Source: a virus (lineage: Duplodnaviria; Heunggongvirae; Uroviricota; Caudoviricetes). Taken from it: a DNA stretch of 17,842 bases. The stretch lies in the IMG/VR virus record IMGVR_UViG_2703718801_000005, positions 1 through 17,842 of that record; one strand, written 5' to 3'. Positions 9,001 through 12,000 of this stretch are shown here, piece after piece; positions within the stretch are counted from its first letter, which is position 1; each line of letters begins with the position of its first letter. The position numbers were made by a program.

Positions 9001-12000
9001 GCTGTTTTACGGATGGCTCGTTACTGCCATACTCCAACCACTCCGGCTTCACGGAAAGCCAGTCACTAAGTGCCAAAATACTTGTTTTTTCTGGAATTGA
9101 TGCAGAATTAAGCCATTTCCAGATCCCCGGTTCAGAGATATCAATGCCTCGCAGTTTCATTGCATTCTGAATCCGCTTAGCCTGACCGCGTCCGCCCACA
9201 CCTGCATCTAATAATGCCTGTAGTAGTCTCTTTGAGAACGCTTCTTTTAGTTCATCTTTTTTAACCATACGTTAATTATCAAACATAGTTGACATAACTG
9301 TCAGCTAATAGTTAACATTAACTCGAAGTTAACTAAATTAATGGATAGCAGTATGAATCCGATACAATTCGCAGTAAAAGCTGTTGGTGGTCAAACAGTC
9401 GCTGCCCGTTTATGCGGGTTGTCAAATGTTGCAATTCATAAGTGGGTTAAAAACGGAGCGTTACCTCGCACCGAATACACGATGAAAACCAACTATTCGG
9501 AAATTCTCGCCAATGCATCTGATGGCAAATTTACCGCCGAATGGTTACGCAATGTAGCGAATCCTGATCGTCAACGATAAGCTCAATTAACACTGCTCTT
9601 TTCACAATGGACATTCGTCCTACGTCGCTGAAAAGCGAGCCCCAAGATATCTGACCAACTAAGGCCATATGCGTTTCCACGCATACCTTTCAACTAACTA
9701 TTCACTATTTGGAATCATAAGAAATGTCACAAACAAGTTACAGCAAACTGTCGCAGCGCGATATCGATCGCGCTGAAACGGATTTACTTATCAACCTGTC
9801 AGCTCTGACGCAAAGGGGACTGGCGAAGATGATTGGCTGCCATGAATCGAAGGTCAGTCGTACCGACTGGCGATACATCGCGGCGATTTTATGCGCGTTC
9901 CAGATGGCATCTGATATCAGTCCGATCAGCCGGGCGTTCAACCATGCCATTAACGTTCATGCAAATAAAAAACGTCCGGTTGGGGCCGGACGTTCTGAGC
10001 AAATCCTGATGAATATCTGATCTTCAGGCAGGGCATGGAGCAATACACGGGAATAATTCTGCCACATCTGGAAGAATTTCGCCAGCAACAACACCAACCG
10101 CAGCAGCCTGAAGCCGATTGGGTTAACCCGGAGATACCGGGACCGTCTGTGAAGATGTGCAGTCACACCAATGTGCAGTCACACCAACCGCAGCAGCCTG
10201 AAGCCGATTGGGTTAACCCGGGAGATACCGGGACCGTCTGCGGTATGGAGTAAATCTTGTATGCGAGGGGACTATGCGTAATTACGCAACAATTTCACCT
10301 CAGTTCTGGTTAGGCGATACAGGGCGAAAACTAAGGAAGTCTGGTCCGGAATGTATGGTAGTGGCGTTGTATATGATGACCTCGCCTCATTCCAATATGC
10401 TGGGCCTTTATTACCTGCCTGTTTTGTACATTGCTCACGAAACCGGACTTGATCCTGAAGGGGCTTCTAAGGGGCTTCAAATGGCTTGCGAGGCTGGTTT
10501 TTGCAGCTATGACCATGATTCTGAGGTTGTATGGGTGCATGAAATGGCAGCATGGCAGGTTGGTGAAGCGCTGAAACCAGGCGATAACCGTTGTGCTGGG
10601 GTAAGAAATGAATATTCCGCGTTGCTGGAAAATCCTTTTTTATCATCATTTTATGATAGATATAAGGATGATTTCCACCTGGATGTCAGACGTGAATCAT
10701 GTCGGAAAATTGAAGCCCCTTCAGAGCCCCTTTCAAGCCAAGAACAGGAACAGGAACAGGAACAGGAACAGGAAAGAGATAAAACCCTTCTGGTCCATGG
10801 CGAAAAAATCGCCACGGACCCTCTGGTGGATTCTTGTCCCGTTCTGACTGAACGTCCAGGACCAGCTGGCATGACACCGGAAGCAGATTCCGGGCGTTGT
10901 GTGCAGCAGGTGCTGCTCGTCGAACCGGAGCAACAACACCAACCGCAGCAGCCTGAAGCCGATTCCGCGATGAGCGGGAAGCCGATTGGGTTAACCCGGG
11001 CGATGCCGGGACCGTCTGCGGGACGAGTTGATTATCCTGACGTGTTCGAACGGGTCTGGCGTGAATATCCGCATCGGGCAGGGTCAAACCCGAAGAAATC
11101 CGCGTTCAATGCCTGGAGGGCCAGATTACGCGAAGGGGTGTCACCGGATGTCGTGCTGGATGGCGTGAGGCGTTACGCAAGATACCTGGAGGCTACCGGG
11201 AAAGCGGGAACTGAATTTGTTCAGCAGGCATCGACGTTTTTTGGCCCGAACAGGAATTTCGAAAATCCGTGGTCGCTGCCGAAGGCTGGCGCAGTCAGCC
11301 TGCGTTGCGTGAATCACATTTCTGAACCGGACACCGAAATTCCGCCGGGTTTCAGGGGGTAATCAGCCATGAAAAACATTTCGACAGGAGGGATTCTTGA
11401 ACGGGTGCGCCGTCTGGTTCCACCGCACGTTACAGCACCGTTCCGGACGACCGACGAGTGGCTGGAATGGCAACTGGCTGAGGGCCGGAAGCGCAGCGAG
11501 GAAGTTAACCGCCAGAATCACCAGACGCGGGTTGAAAAAATCCTGAATCGTTCGGGCATCCAGCCGCTTCACAGGAAGTGCTCATTCGGGAACTACCGGG
11601 TGCAGAACGACGGTCAGCGCCATGCTCTGAGTCAGGCAAAATCCATCGCGGCAGAGCTGCATACCGGCTGCACGAATTTCGTGTTCAGCGGTAAACCTGG
11701 CACCGGGAAAAATCACCTTGCAGCAGCGATTGGTAATCGGCTGATGGCGAAGGGGAGAAGCGTGATTATCGTCACCGTGTCCGATGTCATGAGTGTGTTG
11801 CATGACGGCTACGACAACGGCAAGTCTGGTGAGAAATTTTTACAGGAGCTTTGTGGAGTTGACCTTCTGGTCCTGGATGAAATTGGCATGCAGCGGGATA
11901 CGCGCAACGAGCAGGTCATACTGAACCAGATCGTCGACCGCAGAACGGCATCACTGCGCAGTGTCGGGATGCTGACGAACCTGAATCACGCAGCGATGAG

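Follow-up and report, generated by a model that had tools for sequence, protein, structure and literature searches.

The 17,842-nucleotide stretch of DNA analysed here (the window) comes from a member of the Caudoviricetes, IMG/VR record IMGVR_UViG_2703718801_000005, and encodes a replication initiator of the 'Eru4' type, around which lie three copies of a repeat of about 63 bp, two of them between cII and the initiator gene and the third inside the gene itself. This raises the question of whether the repeat is a replication origin, or a site through which the initiator regulates its own gene, that has been duplicated upstream, as the first-pass annotation had suggested, or whether the additional copies have another source. 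Our analysis retains the first half of that suggestion, in that the upstream copies do derive from the intragenic sequence. The second half, the reading as an origin or autoregulatory site, is not supported by the comparisons described below, since the short sequence that tracks the N-terminal domain of the initiator is a different one, AAGGGGCTTC. The upstream copies probably arose by duplication of linker-coding DNA within one lineage, at a mosaic joint, and recombination would have maintained and reshaped them.

The three-copy repeat is real and statistically beyond chance: the 22-mer GAAGCCGATTGGGTTAACCCGG from the unit occurs exactly three times in the window as against 0.00 expected from 200 shuffles, and searches with the 22-mer and with the motifs of the unit recovered no additional copy elsewhere in these 17.8 kb. 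A repeat scan and alignment bear out the annotated arrangement of two upstream copies (A and B) and one intragenic copy (C; Table 1). The perfect 10-bp palindrome GGGTTAACCC and the inverted arms CCCGG-N5/6-CCGGG, which had been singled out in the unit, are likewise present in all three copies and nowhere else in the window. Two measurements had to be revised, as copies A and B are separated by 90-91 bp from start to start rather than by 95 bp, and the extra segment of copy C, GAAGCCGATTCCGCGATGAGCGG, which is flanked by the 10-bp direct repeat GAAGCCGATT, measures 23 bp rather than 25 bp. Copies A and C are identical in their first 36 bases in the alignment, and copies B and C show 92% identity across 49 bases. 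The A/B junction carries a perfect tandem of the 16-bp sequence ATGTGCAGTCACACCA, and an A/B-type junction with the same tandem is also found in the three-copy array of a related locus (L005). As to the position of copy C, which had been assigned to the linker of the initiator, the structure predicted with AlphaFold2 from a 32-sequence alignment is in agreement: a confidently predicted N-terminal domain (residues 6-144), with an order of helices and strands typical of a winged helix, is separated by a disordered segment (residues 145-251) from a confidently predicted helical C-terminal domain (residues 252-339), and the unit encodes residues 219-250.

The initiator gene contains a second type of repeat. 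The repeat scan recovered an inverted pair, namely AAGGGGCTTCTAAGGGGCTTCAA at 10458-10480 and its complement at 10710-10732, each arm of which consists of two 11-bp units (cluster 1, AAGGGGCTTC; cluster 2, GAAGCCCCTT as read on the + strand). We surveyed 72 distinct relatives, down to approximately 48% protein identity, for the 7-mer GCCCCTT/AAGGGGC, with positions counted relative to the gene start. Against a background of about 1 hit per 50-bp bin, 127 hits fall at +181 to +195 and 136, in either orientation, at +424 to +476, and subsets of the loci show further hits at about -50 to -1 (15) and at +137 to +140 (10). In cluster 1 the wobble positions of the four-fold codons GGG, GCT, GGG and CTT reach 1.5-1.9 bits, as against at most 0.5 bits for comparable codons elsewhere. 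In cluster 2 a different orientation of the motif goes with a different encoded peptide (RGFEGAFKGL in L016, EAPSEPLS in the window), which argues that the DNA rather than the protein is under selection. In the window the GC content between the clusters drops to 0.32 (10620-10679). An AT-rich dip at +350-400 is the GC minimum of the gene in 40 of 70 loci, an effect that the encoded amino-acid composition could partly explain. A position weight matrix derived from 129 iterons of the family placed its top four matches in the window at the four intragenic sites; being built on exact cores, this matrix is biased, and the case against the 63-bp unit as an iteron rests instead on the missing CCCTT core (see below). 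The AAGGGGCTTC sites are thus phased, conserved in position, under selection at the DNA level and adjacent to an AT-rich region. The two clusters, together with the AT-rich stretch that they surround, are the probable origin of the Eru4 replicon, which would place it in the lambda-like class of origins located inside the initiator gene, and the winged-helix-like N-terminal domain would be expected to bind these sites in the manner of lambda O at ori.

A second type of initiator, in which a Tritos-type N-terminal domain is combined with the same C-terminal module, provides a further comparison. The 39 distinct Tritos-type genes carry GTCACG repeats with a 10-11 bp spacing in intragenic clusters at +100-200 and +350-450, and GCCCCTT was not found in them; hence the iterons co-vary with the N-terminal domain and not with the 63-bp unit. 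The two-cluster intragenic layout is common to both initiator types. In phage Tritos itself (L002), in which the N-terminal domain of the initiator is of the replisome-organiser type, the GTCACG clusters lie at 2537-2575 and 2797-2845.

The 63-bp unit has a different character. It is 63-93 bp long, with a single intragenic copy and a period of 90 or 113 bp upstream, and so does not form a cluster of short helically phased repeats. It follows the C-terminal module rather than the DNA-binding domain of the initiator, and is found even behind the Tritos-type N-terminal domain with its own GTCACG iterons. No AT-rich region adjoins it, the GC content over and beside all three copies being 0.55-0.65. 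A degenerate iteron was considered as well and rejected: in the position of the iterons' GCCCCTT the unit has GCCGATT, it thus lacks the CCCTT core that all observed iteron variants keep, and its remaining bases, at least 50 in number, have no counterpart at the iteron clusters. Neither of the two features of plasmid-type control iterons, i.e. the sequence of the origin iterons and overlap with the rep promoter, is present in the unit. No sigma-70-like promoter was predicted on the + strand of 10021-10273, and by analogy with lambda the initiator gene would be read from pR. Searches for a DnaA box, an IHF site or a CII site of the form TTGC-N6-TTGC recovered none in 9900-11500. Binding of CI or Cro to the GTTAAC core of the unit was rejected, since the unit is the same across three cI/cro immunity types and the immunity repressors are therefore not its partners. 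The cI-cro intergenic region (9300-9335) does contain operator-like palindromes centred on GTTAAC, namely AGTTAACATTAACT and AGTTAACT; that this core recurs in GGGTTAACCC is probably a coincidence, since prophages of other immunity types have the unit in unaltered form.

The phyletic distribution of the upstream copies was examined in 80 loci encoding relatives of the whole initiator or of its N-terminal domain, to which 3 genome loci, 80 loci with the C-terminal module and several E. coli prophages were added. All matches of more than 40 bp between the upstream region and the gene came from loci with 85% or more identity to the window. The full-length relatives with 68-78% identity (L014-L023, L119 and others) possess the intragenic segment, have a different upstream neighbour and are devoid of an upstream copy, which is equally absent from about 8 loci whose Eru-type N-terminal domain is 78% identical and from about 50 loci that combine the Tritos-type N-terminal domain with the same C-terminal module. 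A scan of IMG/VR with the exact motif yielded 36 stretches, all of them with one or two upstream copies in addition to the intragenic one. Among complete E. coli genomes the N-terminal half of the initiator was detected in 78 and the array in 81, always on the chromosome. The upstream copies are confined to a single recent lineage, in which their number varies, and are absent from more distant relatives. The region shares 99.4% identity with Shigella phage 75/02 Stx (about 99% over the whole window) and 98-99% with POCJ13, phiSTEC1589-Stx1c and PhiR5_2. Among the replication types of Shiga toxin (Stx) phages, Eru4 is represented by phage 75/02 Stx, the Eru types being classified by gene content (Fagerlund et al. 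2022, PMC8951638). A term search of the texts that define these types, PMC8951638 and PMC8044961, found iterons, repeats and the replication origin unmentioned, the word 'origin' occurring in the former solely as a table heading and in references, and a full-text literature search for the motifs returned nothing relevant.

The comparison with related prophages that the first-pass annotation had proposed brings out copy-number variation, with one, two or three upstream copies among close relatives: two short copies in 22 loci, one short copy in 7, and three long copies with a 113-bp period in L005. In one further locus (L004; E. coli SW071611, 2061-2472) the array is represented by a deletion product, whose junction has the upstream short form at its left and intragenic sequence at its right. 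Here a crossover between an upstream and the intragenic copy has removed the N-terminal half of the initiator, which RefSeq accordingly labels 'missing N-terminus'. The upstream copies of L005 share GATGCC and GAGATGCC with the intragenic copy of the same locus and those of the window share GAAGCC with their own; such lineage-specific variants common to upstream and intragenic copies point to concerted evolution. Copy-number polymorphism with absence from distant relatives and concerted evolution with repeat-mediated rearrangement, as would be expected of a neutral duplication, were found at this locus. The gene allele of Tritos and L016 carries the long form of the unit, which for this reason is taken as the ancestral coding form. 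At the homologous intragenic segment this allele reads GGGTAGTCCC and is devoid of the palindrome, and relative to the window it shows a compensated frameshift (EADRVVPENTGLSVG versus KPIGLTRAMPGPSAG), so there is no constraint on the peptide that the second half of the unit specifies.

Other kinds of variation are also apparent in these initiator genes. Matches to the N-terminal half of the gene among E. coli prophages range in length from 615 to 644 bp, mostly in 6-bp steps, and the (GAACAG)5.5 hexamer at the start of the linker is probably the source of this polymorphism through variation in its copy number. Defective modules with frameshifted initiators were observed in L003 and L089 (E. 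coli G1/2 and G6/7). A free-standing gene for the C-terminal domain, as which phrog_18526 (157 aa) might be taken, was considered and set aside; C-terminal ORFs (open reading frames) of 161 aa occur within the Eru4 lineage in L111 and L112, which suggests that short C-terminal products of the phrog_18526 kind stem from disrupted initiator genes.

The position of the array relative to lambda offers a clue to its source. Homology to lambda, which covers the end of cII, oop, pO and the first codons of O, fades at about position 10084, where copy A begins, and this places the array at the joint of a lambda-like cII/oop/pO segment and the Eru4 module. On the minus strand, 9969-10083 is the counterpart of the lambda oop antisense RNA, with a terminator hairpin internal to cII and a pO-like region.

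Taken together, these observations favor the explanation that the upstream copies are a non-coding, small and unstable tandem array, most likely a by-product of the recombination that assembled the Eru4 module. Two routes might have led to it: a segment comprising the unit, the N-terminal domain and the linker could have integrated through homology in the unit, or a tandem duplication could have been followed by internal deletion. Unequal crossing-over would then shift the copy number over the observed range of one to three, and gene conversion with the intragenic copy would keep the copies alike and account for the variants that they share. Crossing-over between upstream and intragenic copies would delete the N-terminal domain and the probable origin and leave a defective prophage, as seen in L004. 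The last upstream copy could not be removed by homologous recombination without destroying the initiator, and because its loss by this path would delete part of that gene, the array can persist without a function.

Several observations weigh against this explanation and they are for the most part the same that would speak for the unit being a protein-binding module. Every genome of the Eru4 lineage examined retains the array with at least one upstream copy, which would also fit a selected function; with identities of 95.7% or more in E. coli genomes, the lineage is so recent that conservation does not distinguish neutrality from selection. In every copy the perfect palindrome and the 5-bp inverted repeat of CCCGG/CCGGG are intact while the loop between the arms varies, as would be expected of a binding site or a hairpin, and the near-identity of the upstream and intragenic copies is maintained. 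The sequence GAAGCCGATT of the unit resembles the iteron core, matching GAAGCCCCTT at 8 of 10 positions. Lastly, relatives of the L026 type have genuine iterons directly ahead of the initiator start, and upstream initiator sites thus do exist in this family (two or three extra iterons directly upstream of the ribosome-binding site at 2955-2990 in L026, 1002-1038 in L033 and 2733-2761 in L062); in that subfamily they may be autoregulatory sites. On such a reading the copies would lie on either side of the origin as binding sites for the initiator or for a different factor, encoded by phage or host, which might serve autoregulation of initiator expression, or control initiation by titration, looping or handcuffing like the extra iteron clusters of P1 and F. 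We regard such binding and these regulatory roles as doubtful. The homologous segment in Tritos and L016 lacks the palindrome, relatives at 70-78% identity manage without upstream copies, the window contains no more copies than these three, and a number of one to three with a 90- or 113-bp period is unlike the helical phasing of iterons. Furthermore, the unit is without the CCCTT core, its constancy across three cI/cro types eliminates those repressors, and, no promoter being predicted in the array, an operator would have no evident target of control.

A related proposal is that the identical modules are functional as a pair. In one version they would be paired sites by which a phage or host protein loops the 780-bp segment with the N-terminal domain and the origin, and thereby controls initiation; in the other they would be homology 'linkers' for cassette exchange, by which the N-terminal domain and origin are swapped between phages with the same C-terminal module. 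We consider the two versions, even jointly, to be unlikely.

The unit was also examined for a role as structured RNA within the pR transcript, where a hairpin might affect stability, processing or translation. The outer arms CCGCAG/CTGCGG and the inner hairpins do give the same predicted fold in copies B and C. The outer stem is nevertheless broken in copy A, the folding energies of the three copies, on either strand, do not surpass those of shuffled sequences (z -0.7 to -1.2), no Rfam match was found in the region, and compensatory changes are absent, all copies being near-identical. This reading was rejected on account of the folding results and the Rfam search, and we hold it to be very improbable.

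Likewise, the 72-aa ORF that runs through the array had been called spurious in the first-pass annotation, a judgement that the comparative data uphold. It exists as described, with a match to phrog_2751 covering 72 of 72 residues; however, neither its length nor its frame is conserved and a synonymous bias is lacking. It measures 72 aa with two short copies, 42 aa with one and 41 aa with the three long copies of L005, with differing C-termini, while in the deletion product of L004 its length is not applicable. In its unique 5' part all 4 substitutions between the window and L005 are nonsynonymous, a small sample. Its ATG lies in the segment that aligns with the lambda cII end, the oop RNA, pO and the first O codons, and lambda has no ATG there. 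The 5' part was also considered as the remnant 5' end of an older gene, and this was dismissed as it aligns to lambda oop/pO instead. A tblastn search with the first 28 aa found matches in the same phage lineage alone, and the only part that shares its frame with the initiator is QQHQPQQPEAD, encoded by the first half of the unit. One could nonetheless envisage a genuine small gene, or an upstream ORF that would couple ribosomes to the initiator or shield the transcript from Rho. In the one- and two-copy forms (29 of 31 loci) the frame stays open up to a common TAA located 20 nt ahead of the initiator ATG, the 90-bp period preserves it, and the ORF carries a RefSeq annotation and belongs to a PHROG family. 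Such a role appears improbable in light of L005, in which the ORF ends after 41 codons, about 270 nt ahead of the initiator, of the C-terminal peptide that varies among array forms, of the exclusively nonsynonymous substitutions and of the start codon without a lambda counterpart; moreover, no Pfam or NCBIfam family was found for it, and the full-length PHROG match fits a family of near-identical members.

Known systems resemble different parts of this locus. As in the lambda O/ori system, the initiator joins an N-terminal DNA-binding domain through a flexible linker to a C-terminal domain for recruiting the helicase loader, its gene harbors short phased repeats together with an AT-rich stretch, and the left neighbors cII, oop and pO are homologous. 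The lambda-like signature, however, belongs to the 11-bp AAGGGGCTTC sites and not to the 63-bp unit. Further, the two clusters here lie about 250 bp apart around the AT-rich stretch, inverted relative to each other in this phage, unlike the four lambda iterons, which form one block with the AT-rich region beside it, and the initiator shows no resemblance to O in sequence (no Pfam Phage_rep_O). The iteron plasmids (P1 incC/incA, F and pSC101) are similar in that repeats occur upstream of the rep gene as well as inside or beside it, and the L026-type relatives with true iterons just upstream of the initiator recall them as well. In those plasmids, however, the control repeats have the sequence of the origin iterons, while the upstream unit here differs from the iterons, is lineage-specific and has no predicted promoter under it. 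The third comparison is with the scars of mosaic joints and the minisatellites of lambdoid phages, which, like the array, sit at the end of homology to another phage module, vary in copy number, evolve in concert and undergo deletion mediated by the repeats. The array differs in that the duplicated piece is an internal segment of the adjacent essential gene, as a result of which the N-terminal domain of the initiator and the probable origin lie between repeats in the manner of a cassette.

The initiator itself matched no Pfam family, Phage_rep_O included, and matches phrog_1701 ('DnaD-like helicase loader'). Its family comprises 2198 proteins in the Enterobacteriaceae and is without a Pfam family. 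Foldseek searches against the PDB recovered weak matches alone (E >= 0.09), used as a hint, mostly to winged-helix DNA-binding proteins of the MarR, CAP, ArsR, IclR and GntR types. Residues 338-362 (11288-11362; …VNHISEPDTEIPPGFRG) match the extreme C-terminus of DnaT, SEPDxxIPPGFRG (PDB 2ru8, 6aep and 9zbt), and by analogy with the host primosomal protein this tail might touch the DnaB/DnaC machinery. The Eru4 module occurs in phages of E. coli and Shigella that encode Shiga toxin, and phage replication drives the dosage of the toxin gene after induction. For this uncharacterised family the present analysis places a probable origin at 10458-10732 and names its iteron. The significance of the 63-bp repeat lies chiefly in the instability that it brings, which can delete the N-terminal half of the initiator together with the probable origin, a route to defective prophages, and it also inflates annotation with a spurious ORF.

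Table 1. Features of the replication region and its neighbors in the window
Feature	Position	Strand	Remarks
S24 repressor gene	8498-9268	-	
cro-like gene	9341-9580	+	
cII	9724-10020	+	Pfam Phage_CII, E = 1e-25
Intrinsic terminator	9969-9996	-	inside cII 3' end; counterpart of the oop terminator
Homologue of the lambda cII-O junction	10021-10083	.	5' end of oop-like antisense RNA and pO region; by alignment, promoter assignment by reference to lambda
72-aa ORF	10035-10253	+	phrog_2751, annotated 'hypothetical protein'; judged spurious
Repeat copy A (upstream)	10084-10152	+	short form, without one G in CCCGG(G); direct reading, repeat scan, alignment
Perfect 16-bp tandem, ATGTGCAGTCACACCA x2	10155-10186	+	A/B junction; second unit continues into copy B
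Repeat copy B (upstream)	10174-10243	+	short form; 3' end same as that of the intragenic copy; repeat scan, alignment
Initiator gene, 'Eru4' type	10274-11362	+	362 aa; winged-helix-like N-terminal domain, disordered linker, helical C-terminal domain, DnaT-like tail
Iteron cluster 1, AAGGGGCTTC x2	10458-10480	+	11-bp period; probable initiator binding sites
AT-rich stretch between the iteron clusters	10620-10690	.	GC ~0.32; candidate unwinding region
Iteron cluster 2, two inverted motif copies	10710-10739	-	GAAGCCCCTT on + strand; two full copies 10710-10732, partial third
(GAACAG)5.5 hexanucleotide repeat	10742-10774	+	encodes (EQ)n; start of linker
Repeat copy C (intragenic)	10929-11021	+	long form, +23 bases; encodes initiator aa 219-250, end of disordered linker
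DnaC-like helicase loader gene	11369-12109	+	partner of the initiator
DUF1627 protein gene	12135-12905	+	
DUF977 protein gene	12902-13351	+	

Downstream of the replication module, Rfam matches above the gathering score were obtained for isrK (15034-15110), the C4 antisense RNA (15136-15219) and sRNA-Xcc1 (16118-16207), along with a near-threshold match to the c4 a1/b1 target (15021-15073); these matches, at 15021-15219 and 16118-16207, suggest the presence of a P1/P7-like antisense immunity element.

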